64,000 bases of DNA from a bacterium (GTDB lineage Archaea; Thermoplasmatota; E2; JACPAO01; JAHFTW01): positions 326,718 through 390,717 of the forward strand of contig JAZJZE010000001.1 of NCBI GenBank assembly GCA_040390065.1, given 5' to 3'. The position numbers and the translations under genes were made by a program. Of the stretch, positions 18,578 through 56,518 are shown in pieces (within the stretch, counting starts at the first letter, position 1; each line of letters begins with the position of its first letter). The notes under the pieces are model-generated. The model saw only the letters and a program-made list of their open reading frames with translations, was not told the origin of the DNA and did no database searches.

Positions 18578-18657
18578 GGGGGAATGCCCGGGCGTGCTGC
18601 CAGCCACGCTCGGCCAAAGGGGAGCTCCACCATGAGGTTGACGCAACCTCGCGAGCC

Positions 18658-19035
18658 CGCAGCGTTCCTCGCCGCTTCGCGGCATCGGCAAACCTGTCCT
18701 GGCACCTACGACGTGCTCGCTTCGCTCGCGGTCTCAGTGCACAGGACAGGATTTGGCGCTGCGGCCGCGCAGGCGCAGCCGCAGCGTTCCTCGCCGCTTC
18801 GCGGCATCGGCAAACCCTGCCCATGCACCTGTCTGTCGCCGGCGGGCGCTCGGCGCCGCCGATGCGACGCGACTTAGTGCACAGGACAGGATTTGGCGCT
18901 GCGGCCGCGCAGGCGCAGCCGCAGCGTTCCTCGCCGCTTCGCGGCATCGGCAAACCCTGCCCATGCACCTGTCTGTCGCCGGCGGGCGCTAGGCGCCGCC
19001 GATGCGACGCGACTTAGTGCACAGGACAGGATTTG
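18658..19035 (-). repeat. tRNA-Leu 3'-end-derived array: two 140-bp units plus one partial unit
   Basis: agtgcacaggacaggatttg at 18736, 18876 and 19016 (the last is the real tRNA); inverted imperfect copies at 18689-18705, 18811-18828 and 18951-18968; the two full units differ at one base. Confidence 0.95.
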
Positions 19036-19099
19036 AACCTGCGAACCACAAAGGAGAAGGCCCTGAACCTTCCGTCGTTGGCCACTTGACTACCTGTGC
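19018..19099 (-). tRNA. tRNA-Leu(CAG)
   Basis: GCACAGG acceptor stem, GAAGG-TTCAGGG-CCTTC anticodon arm, long variable arm, GGTTCAAATCC T arm, A73; CCA not encoded. Confidence 0.95.
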
Positions 19100-19176
19100 A
19101 TTTGGGGAAAAGGGCCAGCCCTTGCGGAGGGCTGCATCCGGCCGACTTCAGGTTGGCACTTGAGGGTTGCGCCCAG

Positions 19177-19294
19177 GCGAACCACAAAGGGGAAGGCCGT
19201 AGCCCTCGGGCCATCAGGTCCGAGGGCGCGACGTGGACGCCGCGAAGCGGCGGCCCGGCCAACCTTCCGTCGTTGGCCACTTGACTACCTGTGC
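19177..19294 (-). pseudogene. Partial tRNA-Leu copy with the anticodon replaced by a 62-nt hairpin insert
   Basis: 19261-19294 is identical to the tRNA 5' part; 19177-19198 matches the 3' anticodon stem and variable arm (21/22); insert at 19199-19260; T loop and 3' acceptor strand absent. Confidence 0.9.
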
Positions 19295-51770: not shown

Positions 51771-53108
51771 GTGGACAACCAGCCCGCCCGGGAAATCCAG
51801 CGCCCCCGCGGCACCCGCGACTTCGCCCCGGCCGAGATGGCCGTGCGTCGTCACGTGGCCGACCAGATGCGCGGCGTGTTTGCGCGTTTCGGGTACCGCG
51901 AGGTGCAGACGCCGGCCTTCGAGGAACTCGGTTTGTTCACGGCGAAATCTGGCGAGGGCATCGTCGAGGAATTGTACAACTTCAAGGACAAGGGCGAGCG
52001 CGACATGTGCCTGCGGCCGGAACTGACGGCTCCCGTCATGCGCATGTATTTCCAGGAACACTTCAACGACCCGAAGCCCATCAAGTGGTTCTACCACGGC
52101 GCGTGCTACCGCTACGACCGGCCGCAGGCAGGGCGCTACCGAGAATTCTGGCAGTTCGGCTGCGAGCAGATTGGTGCGGGAACGCCGTTGGCCTACGCCG
52201 AGCTGCTGGCCTTGGCGGACGCTGTCATGCGCGAAGTCGGGCTCGTCGAGCGCGAGTTCTTCGTCGGCCATGTCAAGATCCTGAAGCACTGCGTGGACAC
52301 CTTCGGCTTCGACGCCGCCACGCGCGGCAAGCTCATGCGCGCCATCGACAAGGGCGACCGGGCCGAGGTGCAGCGGCTCGCGGATGCGAAGGGCGGATGC
52401 GAAGCGGCGCTCGACCGGCTCTTCCTCATCATGGACGCGCCGACGGTCGCGGCCGCGCGCCACGCTCTGCTGATCGACGCGACGTCCGTGTCGGAGGACG
52501 ACGCTGAACTGCGGGCTGACCTCGCCGACCTCGATGCGGCGCTTCGCTTCCTCGACGGGTTCGGTGTGAAGGGCGTGCGGCTCAACCTCGGCATCGCCCG
52601 CGGCCTCGACTACTACACGGGCATCGTCTTCGAGATGCATTGCCCCATCCTCGGCGCCGAGAAGCAACTCCTGGGAGGCGGCGGCTACGACCTCTCGGCC
52701 GTCTTTGGCGGCCAGCCGACGCCCACGATGGGCTTCGGGCTCGGGTTCGACCGCACGATCGTCGCACTCGAGAAACAGGCGGAACTCGCCGGCCAGAAGA
52801 CTGCCTTCCCCGCGCACGCCGGACCTGCCGCGTACTTTGCCGCCCTCTCGGACGCCGCCGCCGCGAAGGTGCTGCCAATCGTCTCGGGGCTGCGCGCAAA
52901 CGGCCTCGTCGTGGAGCTGGACCTCGCTGGCCGCAAGCCAGGCGCCGTGGCCAAGCACGCCGACGCGGTTGGGGCACGGACCCTTGTCATCCTAGGCGAC
53001 CGCGACCTCGAAGCCGGCAAGGCGCAGGTCAAGGACCTCGCCACGGGGAACACCGAGGACGTGGCAATCGATGCCCTGCCTGCCTGGTTCGTTCGGCACC
53101 GTACCTGA
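51771..53108 (+). CDS. hisS: Histidyl-tRNA synthetase
   Basis: PRGTRDF, LRPELTA, RYDRPQAGRYREFWQ, RGLDYYTG, GGGYD. Confidence 0.97.
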   Translation: MDNQPAREIQRPRGTRDFAPAEMAVRRHVADQMRGVFARFGYREVQTPAFEELGLFTAKSGEGIVEELYNFKDKGERDMCLRPELTAPVMRMYFQEHFNDPKPIKWFYHGACYRYDRPQAGRYREFWQFGCEQIGAGTPLAYAELLALADAVMREVGLVEREFFVGHVKILKHCVDTFGFDAATRGKLMRAIDKGDRAEVQRLADAKGGCEAALDRLFLIMDAPTVAAARHALLIDATSVSEDDAELRADLADLDAALRFLDGFGVKGVRLNLGIARGLDYYTGIVFEMHCPILGAEKQLLGGGGYDLSAVFGGQPTPTMGFGLGFDRTIVALEKQAELAGQKTAFPAHAGPAAYFAALSDAAAAKVLPIVSGLRANGLVVELDLAGRKPGAVAKHADAVGARTLVILGDRDLEAGKAQVKDLATGNTEDVAIDALPAWFVRHRT

Positions 53109-53202
53109 CCGCGAGGTGTATGCCCGCGCGCGGCGTTTCGTGCGCATGGCCCCTCTTGCCGCGATGCGGTGCCTGAAGCGACGCCCCGATCGTCCGGCCG
53201 CC

Positions 53203-53949
53203 ATGGGACTGCGTGTCCTTGCCGTCTGCGTCGTTCTGTTGCTGGCCGGCTGCTCCGGCTCGTCCAAGCAGGATTCCTCGTCGCCATCCGCCGCGCGCCC
53301 CGCCACGTCCTCGTCGGCAGCCCCTCCACCGCCGCCTCCACCTCTGGCGCCGATGCCGCCGCCTCCGCAGGCGCAGCCCGAGCAGCCGCCGCAGACGTAC
53401 CGCGTCCTCAAGGTGGACTTGTGGCTGAACGGGACCGGGCCGCCAGCGCCGCCGCCCGCCAACCCGGTGCCTTGCGACGACGACGGTTCGGCCCAGGCCG
53501 ACTTCGGGACGCAGATGCTGCACTTGCGCGGCGACGGACACGATTTCGTCGTGGGCCAGACGGCGCTTGTCACATACGTTGTCCCCCGGCTGCACGACCC
53601 ATCCGTCCCGCTTGGCGAATGCCCGCCGGAAGGCGAGCCCCAGTTCGACGCATGGGACGCTGGCAACCAAACGTTCGCCTACGTCCTGCACGGCCACCGG
53701 GAACGCGTCGCCATCGAACCGACCGGTTTCGGCGTCCGCGCCGACGGTGTGGCGCTCGCGGCGGGCAAGTCGACGGAGCGAGCCGTGCGCTTCGATTGGA
53801 CCCAGCCGTCCGACGGCGCGCACTACCGCTACGTTGGCCTCCTGCGTGTGACGTTCGTCGGCTTCTGGTCCTACACCAAGGTGAACGAGGCCTTCAGCTC
53901 GAACGGCCCAGGCTACGACGCGGGCGAAGGAAACTGGCACGTTGGCTGA
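53203..53949 (+). CDS. Lipoprotein with Pro-rich linker
   Basis: Lipobox LAGC; poly-Pro linker. Confidence 0.7.
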   Translation: MGLRVLAVCVVLLLAGCSGSSKQDSSSPSAARPATSSSAAPPPPPPPLAPMPPPPQAQPEQPPQTYRVLKVDLWLNGTGPPAPPPANPVPCDDDGSAQADFGTQMLHLRGDGHDFVVGQTALVTYVVPRLHDPSVPLGECPPEGEPQFDAWDAGNQTFAYVLHGHRERVAIEPTGFGVRADGVALAAGKSTERAVRFDWTQPSDGAHYRYVGLLRVTFVGFWSYTKVNEAFSSNGPGYDAGEGNWHVG

Positions 53950-53981
53950 GCTTGGCCAGCGCGCAGGTGGGGGCGCGCCCG

Positions 53982-54191
53982 TCAACCGCCACTGAACGCC
54001 GACAGCAGGACAAGGGTCTCGCCATCGACGACGGGCTCGTCCTCGGGGACCGGCGTCGAGCCGCGAATGGCAAGCGTGTGGTCCGGCGATTGACCGACGG
54101 CGCGAAGCACGTCCCCAACCGTCGCACCGGGCGACAAGGCGACGTCGCGGGGCGGCTCTCGGGCGGGTCGGAAGACAATGCGGACCTGCAA
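53982..54191 (-). CDS. Ubiquitin-like sulfur carrier (SAMP/MoaD/ThiS family)
   Basis: 69 aa; 'GATVGDVLRAVG...PVPED'; C-terminal SGG; TTG start. Confidence 0.85.
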   Translation of the reverse strand: MQVRIVFRPAREPPRDVALSPGATVGDVLRAVGQSPDHTLAIRGSTPVPEDEPVVDGETLVLLSAFSGG

Positions 54192-54192
54192 G

Positions 54193-54275
54193 CGCCGAGG
54201 GCAGGATTTGAACCTGCAAATCCAGGGGACACTGGTTTTCGAGACCAGCGCAATACCGGGTTATGCGACCTCGGC
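54193..54275 (-). tRNA. tRNA-Ser(CGA)
   Basis: GCCGAGG acceptor stem, CTGGT-CTCGAAA-ACCAG anticodon arm, variable arm, GCAGG-TTCAAAT-CCTGC T arm, G73. Confidence 0.95.
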
Positions 54276-54691
54276 AGGTAAGTCGGCCGACTTGTGGCCG
54301 CTATTTCCAGGTTTCGTGCCGTGCGAGCGCGACGCGCGAGCCATCAGGGGGTCGCGGGGGGCGGTAAGCCCCCCCGCAGGTCCGCGGGGCCGCAGGCCCC
54401 GCTGCCCAAATGATCGACCTGTTTGCAGGTCGAGGGACACTGGTTTTCGAGACCAGCGCAATACCGGGTTATGCGACCTCGGCAGGTAAGTCGGCCGACT
54501 TGTGGCCGCTATTTCCAGGTTTCGTGCCGTGCGAGCGCGACGCGCGAGCCATCAGGGGGTCGCGGGGGGCGGTAAGCCCCCCCGCAGGTCCGCGGGGCCG
54601 CAGGCCCCGCTGCCCAAATGATCGACCTGTTTGCAGGTCGAGGGACACTGGTTTTCGAGACCAGCGCAATACCGGGTCATGCGACCTCGGC
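54276..54691 (-). repeat. Two 208-bp tandem units, each containing the 5' 50 nt of tRNA-Ser(CGA)
   Basis: tRNA fragment at 54434-54483 (identical) and 54642-54691 (1 mismatch); hairpin-rich 158-bp spacers. Confidence 0.95.
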
Positions 54692-54796
54692 AGAAGGGCG
54701 CTGGGGCGGAGGCCAGGGCTCGCCTATATTCCCATTTCGAGGGGCCGCAGGTCGACCCACCCAAACCTCATGTGGGCGGCGCCGATAGGATACGCC

Positions 54797-55804
54797 GTGC
54801 GCAAGCGCCTGGCCATGGCCGCCCTCGTCCTCATGCTTCTGCCGGCCGTTCCGGCCCGCGCCGCCGACCCTGGCGACGGCATCGTGATCGCCGTTCTCGA
54901 CACGGGCGTCGACTCGAGCCACCCGGAACTGAAGGACCGCGTCGAGCGCATGAGTTTCTACCGATCCCCCATCCCGCCGGTTCCCGGCTTGCCAGACCCG
55001 ACGACGCTTCAGCCGGACCCCGATGGCCACGGCACGGCGGCGGCGAGCGTCGCGGCGGCCAAGTCGTTCGGCGTCGCCTCCGGCGCCCGCATCCTGGACA
55101 TGCAGGTCAGCGCCCGCTACACGCAAGGCGCCCTCGACCCGACGGCGGAGGAAGCGGCCACGCGTGCGATGGATGAACTGCTGCGCCACCACGGCGGCAA
55201 CGGCACGGCGGGACCGCGCGTCGTGCTGCTGTCCTTCGCGAACAACTTGACGGCATCCGGGGCCGCGACCTTGGCCGCGCAGGCGCACGACCTGTGGGAT
55301 GCGGGCGTCCTTGTCATCGTGCCTGCGGGCAGCCACTCGCCGCTTCACGACAGCCCATACGTCGTCACCGTCGGCGACCGCGACGCTACGTGTGCAGCGG
55401 GCGTTCCGGCGGCCGGCGTCCTCAAGCCCGACCTGGCGGCCGCGGCTCGCAACGTCAAGGTGGCGACGCCTGGAACGCCCACGGGCGGCCAAGGCCAGGC
55501 GTCGGGCACCGCGTTTGCATCGGCGTCCGTCGCCGGGGCCGCGGCCCTCATGTGGCAGGCCCGTCCTGGACTTCCCGTCGCCGCGCTCGCCGCCATCATG
55601 CGTGACACGGCGGCCGACAAGGCCGCAGCCGGTCCCGACGGGTGCACCGGTTTCGGCGCCTTGGACGCGGAGGCGGCCGTCGTCGCCGCGAAAGCCTGGA
55701 GCGATCCCGTTCCGCCGGGCACCCCATCAGCGGCCAAGTCGCCGATGCCGATCGGCCCCTTGGTCGCGCTGGTCCTGTTGGCCTTGGCGGCTCGTCGGAG
55801 GTAG
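54797..55804 (+). CDS. Subtilisin-like S8 protein, probably catalytically inactive, with C-terminal sorting signal
   Basis: AVLDTG, GHGT and KPDL present, but SGTAFA replaces SGTSMA; KSP-TM-RRR tail. Confidence 0.85.
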   Translation: MRKRLAMAALVLMLLPAVPARAADPGDGIVIAVLDTGVDSSHPELKDRVERMSFYRSPIPPVPGLPDPTTLQPDPDGHGTAAASVAAAKSFGVASGARILDMQVSARYTQGALDPTAEEAATRAMDELLRHHGGNGTAGPRVVLLSFANNLTASGAATLAAQAHDLWDAGVLVIVPAGSHSPLHDSPYVVTVGDRDATCAAGVPAAGVLKPDLAAAARNVKVATPGTPTGGQGQASGTAFASASVAGAAALMWQARPGLPVAALAAIMRDTAADKAAAGPDGCTGFGALDAEAAVVAAKAWSDPVPPGTPSAAKSPMPIGPLVALVLLALAARRR

Positions 55805-55805
55805 C

Positions 55806-55997
55806 ATGACGGCCGATGCCGAAGAGTGCCAGACCTGCCAGGCGCCGCTGTCATGGGTCGACGCCGCCTACTCCTGCGCCCTCGACTGCACGTTCTGCCC
55901 TGATTGCGCGGAGCAATACGGCCACGTCTGCCCCAATTGCTCCGGCGAGCTGACCATGCGGGCCCGCAAGACGCAGCCAGTAGGCCCTCGGCGATGA
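55806..55997 (+). CDS. DUF1272-like Cys-rich small protein
   Basis: 'CQTC...AYSCALDCTFCPDCAE...VCPNCSGEL'. Confidence 0.8.
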   Translation: MTADAEECQTCQAPLSWVDAAYSCALDCTFCPDCAEQYGHVCPNCSGELTMRARKTQPVGPRR

Positions 55998-56518
55998 CGG
56001 TGTCCGTCTTCGTCGGCGTCAGCGTCGACGGCTTCCTGGCGCGCCCCGACGGCGGCCTCGATTGGCTCCCCTCGCCTGGCGGCGATGACGCAGGCTATGC
56101 CGACTTCATGGCCGGCATCGACGCCCTCGTCATGGGACGAAAGACGTTCGAGACCGCCCTTGGATTCGGCAAGTGGCCGTACACCGGCAAGCGCGTCGTG
56201 GTCCTGAGCAGCAAGCCCGTCGACCTCGCGGCCGTACGCGGCCACCGCGTCGAAGCGATGGCGGGCACGCCCGCCGACATCGTGGAGCGCCTTGCGTTGA
56301 CGGGGGCCCGGAACTTGTACGTCGATGGCGGAGCGACCATCCAGGGCTTCCTGCGCGACGGCCTCGTCGACCGGCTCATCGTCACGCGCGTCCCCGTCCT
56401 CATCGGCCAAGGCATCCCCCTGTTCGGGCCGCTTGCCAACGACGTCCGACTGCGGCAGGTGGCGACGCGCACGTTTTCCGGTGGCTTGGTCCAGACCGAA
56501 TATGCAGTCGTCCGCTGA
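55994..56518 (+). CDS. Dihydrofolate reductase-like/RibD C-terminal domain protein
   Basis: 'SVDGFLARPDGGLDWL', 'MGRKTFE', 'VDGGATIQGFL', 'PVLIGQGIPLF'. Confidence 0.9.
   Translation: MTVSVFVGVSVDGFLARPDGGLDWLPSPGGDDAGYADFMAGIDALVMGRKTFETALGFGKWPYTGKRVVVLSSKPVDLAAVRGHRVEAMAGTPADIVERLALTGARNLYVDGGATIQGFLRDGLVDRLIVTRVPVLIGQGIPLFGPLANDVRLRQVATRTFSGGLVQTEYAVVR

Follow-up and report, generated by a model that had tools for sequence, protein, structure and literature searches.

In an uncultured archaeon, an intact tRNA-Ser(CGA) gene lies downstream of two dead copies of its 5' part, each followed by a hairpin-rich spacer that carries a member of a dispersed family of small non-coding elements, here called E1. 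The locus lies in a stretch of 64,000 nucleotides (nt) (the window; positions 326,718 to 390,717 of contig JAZJZE010000001.1, here C1) of a 2.68-Mb assembly in 50 contigs (GCA_040390065.1; 66.8% GC, 89% complete); this genome is labeled G000 and its relatives G001 upward. Beside E1, at tRNA genes and at protein-gene ends alike, the truncated copy of the duplicated gene end touches the same end of the element wherever the two copies can be told apart. Our best reading, to which we give a probability of about 0.5, is that E1 leads a cassette that recombines into the resident gene and strands the old gene end as a stump.

The sequence-only reading had described two tandem 5' tRNA fragments with hairpin spacers ahead of this tRNA gene, and ARAGORN, Rfam, TRF, and blastn bear out that layout. 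The features of the locus are as follows, with upstream lying toward higher coordinates.

54192..54275, minus strand: intact tRNA-Ser(CGA), no encoded CCA (ARAGORN; Rfam RF00005, 57.2 bits)
54276..54321, minus strand: promoter and leader of the working copy, fitting the pattern TATA-N10-11-AAGTCGGC
54280-54293, minus strand: initiator box AAGTCGGCCGACTT, a palindrome in the working copy's promoter
54301-54308, minus strand: TATA-like GGAAATAG in the working copy's promoter
54322..54433, minus strand: proximal copy of E1 with hairpins A, B, C, and D, a member of the dispersed family (model R1, 78 bits)
54434..54483, minus strand: dead 5' fragment, middle copy, tRNA nt 1-50 (blastn, 50/50)
54484..54529, minus strand: second copy of the promoter and leader, same as 54276-54321 (40/40 outward identity)
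54530..54641, minus strand: distal copy of E1 (model R1, 78 bits)
54642..54691, minus strand: dead 5' fragment, leftmost copy (blastn, 49/50)
54692..54775, minus strand: upstream region of the leftmost copy, with TATA-like AATATA at 54725-54730
54741-54755, minus strand: 15-mer TCGACCTGCGGCCCC, a putative E1 remnant with an internal deletion

The array unit is 208 nt in length (tRNA nt 1-50 plus a 158-nt spacer), and two units stand before the intact gene; TRF reports a 208-nt period with 2.2 copies and 99% matches over 54226-54693. The two spacers are 100% identical, and each is composed of a 112-nt E1 copy followed by a 46-nt tRNA promoter and leader. The hairpin TCGACCTG-CAAA-CAGGTCGA abuts the 3' side of each dead fragment, and the 208-nt unit folds better than all of 200 shuffled versions (z -3.5). 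ARAGORN calls the full gene only, and the middle fragment scores 25.8 bits on the Rfam tRNA model, under its 29-bit gathering threshold. The leftmost copy ceases to resemble the gene at a point 2 nt upstream of its tRNA nt 1 (z = 0.0 for the local score of the flank). Gapped alignment of its upstream region with the spacer gave z = 1.9, with 19 of 500 shuffles as good, a weak hint of a remnant. The intact gene itself is 96-100% identical across nine same-genus genomes.

A 208-nt repeat is difficult for short reads, and several contigs of the assembly begin or end in tRNA repeats, as they might were the tandem array an assembly artefact. We consider this hardly credible. A separate unitig assembly of the probable source run has flanks at a depth of 13-14, a 232-nt repeat unitig at 23.2 (1.7 times the flank), and the 36 nt common to all three copies at 55 (about four times the flank); about two units are therefore present, on evidence that comes from the same sample and is not independent of the assembly. 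The same fragment-E1 junction also occurs in related genomes from other studies.

E1 has one fixed end and one variable end. Module A, at the fixed end, is a perfect hairpin, CGACCTG-CAAA-CAGGTCG, followed by ATCATTTG; module B is a second hairpin whose stem sequence varies among copies. Long copies carry extra GC-rich hairpins (C and D at tRNA-Ser) and have the terminus GCGCTCGCA, and the size of the non-coding element ranges from 55 to 140 nt. Nucleotides 1-112 of the spacer have 29 blast matches in G000 at E<=0.001, and a pattern search for hairpin A found 23 sites. The sequence-only reading had looked to a covariance model of the spacers; the model R1, built from 39 E1 copies (two of them short metagenome-contig matches), has 31 matches in G000 at E<=0.01. 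Hairpins A and B are conserved as structures. In their alignment 91.5% of cells are paired, as against 28-41% with the partners slid, and compensatory changes occur in 34 cells, as against 10.7 in shuffles, with none of 500 shuffles reaching 34.

The family has a narrow distribution. With the best 32 candidates per genome scored, R1 matches 17 of 151 sampled genomes of the class, all in the window's own family; besides G000 it matches 16 of the 31 other family genomes and none of 119 genomes outside the family. Exact matches to hairpin A come from metagenome-assembled genomes of Thermoplasmatota archaeon and two labeled uncultured Halobacteriales archaeon, and from no others. Viral contigs gave no match to the hairpin-A word, and metagenome contigs gave three short ones. 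E1 has no terminal inverted repeats, its palindromes being internal only. Repeats flanking the element are either absent or 19-124 nt long and variable, and hence there is no fixed-length short target duplication. Junctions at hairpin A are blunt, start at the same base every time, and show no microhomology. The hairpin had been thought to contain an inverted piece of the tRNA itself. This 9-nt inverted match is real, being reached by 13 of 2000 shuffles, but the hairpin is a constant module of the family and is not tRNA-derived. The description of these sequences as miniature tRNA-targeting elements comes near to the findings: the hairpin element is heavily enriched at tRNA genes, although E1 also occurs at protein-gene ends and in intergenic DNA. 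E1 was also considered as a terminator behind genes, a role that we do not claim for it: nine of the 23 hairpin-A sites lie at most 45 nt after a long open frame, as compared with 9% of random sites, but open frames are unreliable at 67% GC.

Three regularities are relevant to the mechanism. One is polarity. In all 16 assignable loci (seven tRNA loci, namely Ser, Met, Asp, Val, Tyr, Leu-GAG, and Ala, and nine protein-gene ends), it is the truncated copy that adjoins the fixed hairpin, and the working gene is faced by the variable far end of the element. Six loci (C2:89937, L049, C1:22026, C6:10133, C5:296971, and L041) were excluded from this count as unassignable. Another is the position of identity boundaries. 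Seven of 13 fragment-gene pairs of G000 have unrelated flanks, with identity stopping 0-2 nt from the end of the mature tRNA. In the Val and Tyr pairs the flanks are related but diverged (z of 8.8 and 3.6, respectively), and the tRNA parts match at 43/43 and 67/67 positions; in four of the 13 pairs, the identical block extends 14-40 nt past the tRNA. The tRNA-Ser array contains both kinds, with the leftmost copy belonging to the sharp-boundary class and the middle copy to the extended-block class.

The third regularity concerns divergence. Dead and working copies were compared at five protein-gene loci: of the 29 codons at which they differ, 22 carry synonymous changes, and the stops have stayed in place (for example, GMKESNVDLAGQSFRIDVEILKTRKDG as compared with ...ETLKPRKDA, each followed by a stop). 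A stump decaying beside its parent would be expected, by a rough estimate, to show ~40% synonymous differences. The excess implies that, through most of the time in which they diverged, both copies served as working gene ends, as would two alleles diverging under selection, and it suggests that each pair combines alleles of different lineages in a recent union.

The sequence-only reading supposed that the same process acts at tRNA-Ser and tRNA-Leu, which understated its extent. In a blast search with the 52 tRNAs predicted by ARAGORN in G000, at least 14 genes proved to be accompanied by a partial copy at a distance of 70-300 nt. Pieces of the 5' end lie upstream of Val-CAC, Leu-CAG, Ser-CGA, Pro-TGG, Leu-CAA, and Ser-TGA, and pieces of the 3' end lie downstream of Arg-CCT, Arg-TCG, Leu-GAG, Gly-CCC, Met, Thr-CGT, and Gln-CTG; for tRNA-Tyr (75 nt in G000) the second copy is near-full. 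At loci other than tRNA-Ser, 3' pieces begin at nt 45-56 or 66 and 5' pieces stop at nt 11-35, and the fragments mostly lack an intact anticodon arm. The 3' fragments carry no CCA, which is also not encoded in the other G000 tRNA genes read. A wider survey of tRNA loci, which had likewise been suggested, yielded local direct repeats at 23 of 48 tRNA genes (four dubious predictions having been dropped). With clusters defined as repeats of at least 22 nt lying 40-500 nt apart, 20 of 96 fall within 300 nt of tRNA genes, a zone that makes up ~1.2% of the genome.

Direct repeats also adjoin the element itself. In G000, nine of the 23 hairpin-A sites have a direct repeat, up to 124 nt in length, that ends 0-2 nt from hairpin A. 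The same is true of 13 of 22 hairpin-A loci in other genomes (repeats of 23-102 nt), with six of these loci at tRNA genes. In other genomes, E1 occurs at tRNA-Met at the same site as in G000, at nt 30/31 of tRNA-Ala-CGC in another genus (three genomes, with a tandem array among them), and, as a single copy, immediately after an intact tRNA-Arg. A variant E1 adjoins tRNA-Asp along with a 19-nt dead 3' piece, and tandem arrays of fragment plus element are found at non-tRNA sites as well. Within the window, a 5' fragment of 34 nt (19261-19294) accompanies tRNA-Leu(CAG) (19017-19099, minus strand); its hairpin filler is of another kind, and a promoter-like patch of its own goes with it. Downstream of this gene, within 18657-19294, are more direct repeats, one of them a 140-nt tandem. 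In a second element, E2, the terminal hairpin is a different one, GCCCCnCGAAGGGGC, and is followed by CCCCTTTCGAAACC and a B-type hairpin. The three exact-core copies of E2 (C1:220791, C1:288319, and C9:471488) all lie beside dead tRNA pieces (of Leu-GAG, Val-CAC, and Tyr), and a variant at C9:577641 lies beside a non-tRNA direct repeat. The gene for tRNA-Ser(TGA), at C31:1-473, has at least three 120-nt units before it. Each unit is made up of a leader and tRNA nt 1-38, interrupted after nt 26 by a 54-nt hairpin insert, and C31 begins within this array. The start of C8, the start of C17, the end of C11, and the start of C9 also fall inside tRNA genes or E1 copies. Contig ends of this kind indicate that the assembly is interrupted by E1 and tRNA repeats, of which there are probably more copies than it shows.

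Occupancy of the orthologous site varies within the genus. Among ten same-genus tRNA-Ser loci, G002 and G010 have the same fragment-E1 junction as G000 and a single unit apiece (at G010 a contig end interrupts the locus), and G001 and G005 have, by eye, an 11-nt 5' piece with a different hairpin filler. No 5' piece occurs at the other six of the ten loci. Downstream of tRNA-Ser, a 16-19-nt 3' piece is present at five of the ten loci, two of which have an inverted copy as well. At L013 (G008) and L010 (G002), the last 15-16 nt of tRNA-Ser are inverted ~57-64 nt before the direct 3' fragment, and the two pieces can form a long stem-loop; tRNA-Gly(CCC) of G000 has a similar inverted T-arm piece. 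In how tRNA-Ser is placed relative to its SAMP2-like neighbor, G000 agrees with G004 and G005, both without E1. From this and the patchy occupancy it follows that the G000 array is polymorphic and of recent date.

We envision E1 as a mobile element, small and non-coding, whose hairpin A marks a defined end. DNA running from hairpin A into an adjoining gene would recombine with the resident gene inside a conserved segment, by a Campbell-type, att-like, or one-sided homologous integration. At tRNA-Ser, the cassette would consist of E1, a promoter, and tRNA nt 1-50, and recombination within the shared 50 nt would strand the resident promoter and first 50 nt against hairpin A, placing the cassette's promoter and 5' part ahead of the rest of the gene. 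The leftmost copy would then retain the resident upstream region, and one of the copies would be of foreign origin, from a related lineage. At protein genes, the incoming end would take over with its own stop signal. A second identical unit could arise from a second round or from unequal crossing-over, and iteration would produce arrays. The dead fragments are most likely by-products. With such a cassette, the three regularities (polarity, sharp boundaries, and allele-like divergence) would be explained, as would the arrays; tRNA genes would be preferred as the best-conserved anchors for recombination. The modular make-up of the spacer, the structural conservation of hairpins A and B, and the variable occupancy of orthologous sites also speak for it, as does the ranking of the three E1-host tRNAs of G000 as 1st, 4th, and 5th of 52 for words shared with hairpin A.

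Several observations weigh against the cassette reading. The arrangement expected of a donor (E1, promoter, and tRNA-Ser with no dead fragment) is found in none of 12 same-genus genomes. At G002, G010, tRNA-Pro, tRNA-Gln, and tRNA-Arg(TCG), the block extends 14-60 nt past the tRNA at near identity, which looks like plain target duplication and would need a near-identical donor. The synonymous bias is a small count, with reading frames inferred in a 67% GC genome, and the ranking of host tRNAs by shared words is post hoc. Nor does an enzyme present itself. The six matches to tyrosine integrase (PF00589) in G000 lie on C2, C4, C5, and C11, with none on C1, and the 89%-complete assembly has no match to Y1 transposase (PF01797) or TnpB (PF07282) and no detected reverse transcriptase or Cas1. 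Two DDE_Tnp_1 reading frames lie elsewhere in G000. The only GIY-YIG matches are a frame of UvrC size and a gene resembling homing endonucleases, which lies in a virus-like part of C10, and no E1 is found nearby.

The extended blocks at G002, G010, and tRNA-Pro, which include the promoter at near identity, are what one would expect if E1 were instead a non-autonomous transposon whose insertion duplicates ~20-120 nt of target through wide staggered breaks and fill-in. Insertions near gene ends would survive since one copy stays intact, and the second unit would be a later tandem duplication. Direct repeats of 23-124 nt that end at hairpin A (9/23 sites in G000, 13/22 elsewhere) agree with this, as do the two DDE_Tnp_1 frames, and there is a precedent of sorts in IS1634 and IS1549, which are reported to produce direct repeats of variable length (8-514 bp) for which no mechanistic model is given (PMC2266710). 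A symmetric staggered cut, however, fails to explain the 16/16 polarity, the stop of identity at the gene end in 7/13 pairs, or the 22 of 29 synonymous differences, and E1 lacks terminal inverted repeats. We therefore regard a transposon of this sort as unlikely. We attach slightly less weight again to the idea that the arrays are scars of a virus or plasmid with a tyrosine integrase, whose attP copied tRNA nt 1-50 and which perhaps integrated twice by accretion before being mostly deleted, leaving only the attP-proximal E1 and promoter. Identity blocks ending at a tRNA terminus are typical of att sites, G000 has its six PF00589 matches and a distant tRNA-Val(GAC) 3' fragment 2 kb from an integrase on C11, and tRNA fragments left by integration in archaea are well documented (PMC9897764). 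The same source has such tRNA repeats flanking 9-23 kb, whereas at least 14 loci here have 70-300 nt with no intermediates. Moreover, the same E1 module stands beside many different cores, including unique protein-gene ends; the window's contig has no integrase, and hairpin A has no match in viral contigs.

Template switching during replication would produce a duplication around a templated insert if a fork or repair synthesis, stalled at the entrance to a highly transcribed gene such as a tRNA gene, copied a hairpin element from another place and resumed behind the stall. The bias to tRNA genes and gene ends, the variable length of the duplications, the variable far end of E1, and even the polarity fit such a model. 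The blunt, fixed-base junctions at hairpin A, devoid of microhomology, do not, and the allele-like divergence of the copies is left unexplained; this model, which has no direct support, is improbable. Function rather than accident could also maintain the fragments, as promoter-driven half-tRNAs serving as decoys for anticodon nucleases or as small regulatory RNAs. The promoter of the middle fragment is the same as that of the gene, the Ser fragments retain D and anticodon arms, and the fragment with the start of the hairpin does score 25.8 bits on the tRNA model. That score is nevertheless under the Rfam threshold, occupancy is patchy among close relatives, and the same element flanks dead protein-gene ends. 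The anticodon-arm decoy, an idea of the sequence-only reading, is not supported, as that arm is missing from most fragments elsewhere, and we consider functional half-tRNAs very improbable. Two further candidates were rejected. An RNA-templated origin of the fragments is at odds with the lack of CCA on 3' fragments and with the promoters held in some blocks, and would need antisense templates for the 3' cases; a split tRNA is incompatible with the complete tRNA-Ser gene.

By analogy, the layout looks like a miniature att system and resembles the tyrT repeats of Escherichia coli, and the element looks like REP or PATE repeats; E1 fits the definition of none of the known families compared. The 178-bp repeats distal to E. 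coli tyrT, associated with RtT RNA, are tandem units beside a tRNA gene, each of which starts with a piece of the tRNA. To our knowledge, their origin has not been explained. The E. coli units repeat the 3' end on the downstream side; the present ones repeat the 5' end and promoter on the upstream side, with a dispersed mobile family as filler; a search for Rfam RtT (RF00391) at E<=1 in 53000-56000 gave tRNA hits only. As with the att repeats of archaeal proviruses and islands (PMC9897764 and PMC3119063), a partial tRNA lies beside a full one, identity often ends at the tRNA terminus, incoming DNA supplies the displaced gene part, and arrays are possible by repeated integration. Those elements are 9-50 kb with an integrase, as opposed to 70-300 nt of non-coding hairpins with no integrase linked. 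At tRNA-Ser, the repeat does include the tRNA terminus, and what separates the copies is 158 nt rather than a kb-sized element with an adjoining integrase. A further difference is that here 5' parts and promoters are replaced as often as 3' parts, and protein-gene ends are affected too.

Like REP/REPIN-RAYT sequences and the haloarchaeal PATEs (PMC3119063), E1 is a short, gene-less, palindromic intergenic repeat that is conserved as a hairpin and lacks terminal inverted repeats. The dispersed, hairpin-conserved units agree with REP/REPIN-RAYT, and the Y1 (RAYT) domain PF01797 is not found in the 89%-complete assembly. PATEs are described as causing no target duplication, while E1 often has flanking repeats of 23-124 nt and is polarized to gene ends; a PATE or IS200-IS605 derivative is further disfavored by the zero matches to PF01797 and PF07282 and the long flanking repeats at 9/23 sites. 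Miniature inverted-repeat transposable elements have terminal inverted repeats and a fixed short target duplication, and E1 has neither. IS1634 and IS1549 share with E1 long variable direct repeats (8-514 bp) and the lack of an accepted mechanism, but are 1.5-2 kb DDE elements with inverted ends (PMC2266710), and E1 is gene-less without inverted ends. In homology-facilitated illegitimate recombination (PMC3240628) and transformation-triggered tandem duplication (PMC3784515), incoming DNA anchored on one side integrates and creates duplications, with donor repeats driving unequal pairing. These accounts concern competent bacteria and kb to hundreds of kb, and describe no fixed hairpin end or gene-end specificity. 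Searches of the literature outside bioRxiv supplements and subscription journals gave no account of hairpin elements flanked by stumps of tRNAs or gene ends at such a scale.

We tentatively propose, as a possibility that we hold to be clearly less probable than the cassette reading itself, that E1, its sister E2, and the other hairpin fillers represent previously undescribed mobile DNA of archaea: gene-less 'gene-end cassettes' with one fixed end, which capture an adjoining gene end along with the promoter or stop signals that belong to it. By recombination into the conserved part of the gene they would then spread, both inside a lineage and to related ones, a foreign end replacing the resident one and the old end remaining as a stump; tRNA genes would be favored as the best-conserved anchors. 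If so, tiny non-coding elements would have a cheap route to persist inside essential genes without killing them, and gene ends (tRNA promoters and protein C-termini) would be exchanged between related archaea. This would also explain why these metagenome-assembled genomes break at tRNA genes and have multiplied tRNA promoters and, possibly, partial tRNA predictions. Hairpin A would provide a sequence-defined handle for finding the enzyme, and the mechanism may bear on the origin of the tyrT repeats and of split or disrupted archaeal tRNA genes.

The promoter within the spacer is of a type common in G000. A TATA sequence, 10-11 nt, and then AAGTCGGC occur, by eye, upstream of at least 13 G000 tRNA genes, and the last 46 nt of the spacer (GGAAATAG, 11 nt, AAGTCGGCCGACTT) fit this pattern. 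The working copy's promoter also resembles, by eye, the native tRNA-Ser promoters of relatives. The palindrome AAGTCGGCCGACTT is indeed present at the end of each spacer, before the tRNA start that follows, as the sequence-only reading noted, but it is the promoter's initiator box and forms, with GGAAATAG, the usual tRNA promoter. The motifs that were thought to link tRNA-Ser with tRNA-Leu do not do so: AAGTCGGC is promoter consensus (335 copies genome-wide versus 102 expected, eight of them exact sense copies at most 70 nt upstream of tRNA genes), and GCCATCAGG is at chance level (48 versus 34 expected). At 3.3 times its expected frequency across the genome, the AAGTCGGC octamer may serve this lineage as a general initiator element.

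Next to tRNA-Ser lies one protein gene:

53982..54191, minus strand: SAMP2-like small modifier gene (Pfam PF21965 SAMP2, E = 4.5e-8)

This 69-amino acid reading frame begins 1 nt past the 3' end of tRNA-Ser and is probably co-transcribed with it, and all three promoters of the array may feed read-through into both. The SAMP2-like gene also adjoins tRNA-Ser in G004 and G005. Two groups of genomes differ in having the gene either downstream of tRNA-Ser or inverted upstream of it, from which tRNA-Ser appears to have been flipped relative to this gene within the genus.

Elsewhere in G000, a 663-codon frame (SWIM-like zinc finger, DDE_Tnp_1), tRNA-Lys(CTT), and a tyrosine integrase occur within 5 kb at C4:101653-106731, which is likely a conventional integrated element. 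At C17:90985-93665, two reading frames that resemble Nop5 and fibrillarin, as judged by eye from the translations, lie between inverted E1 copies whose hairpin A points outward, and C9 holds two more inverted pairs resembling this one. We considered and rejected such inverted pairs, 2.3-6.6 kb apart, as transposon ends. Directly upstream of some E1 copies is a 200-280-nt repeat family (C9:188938-189218 and about 25 other G000 sites); it probably represents a conserved 3' end shared by the members of a multi-copy gene family.

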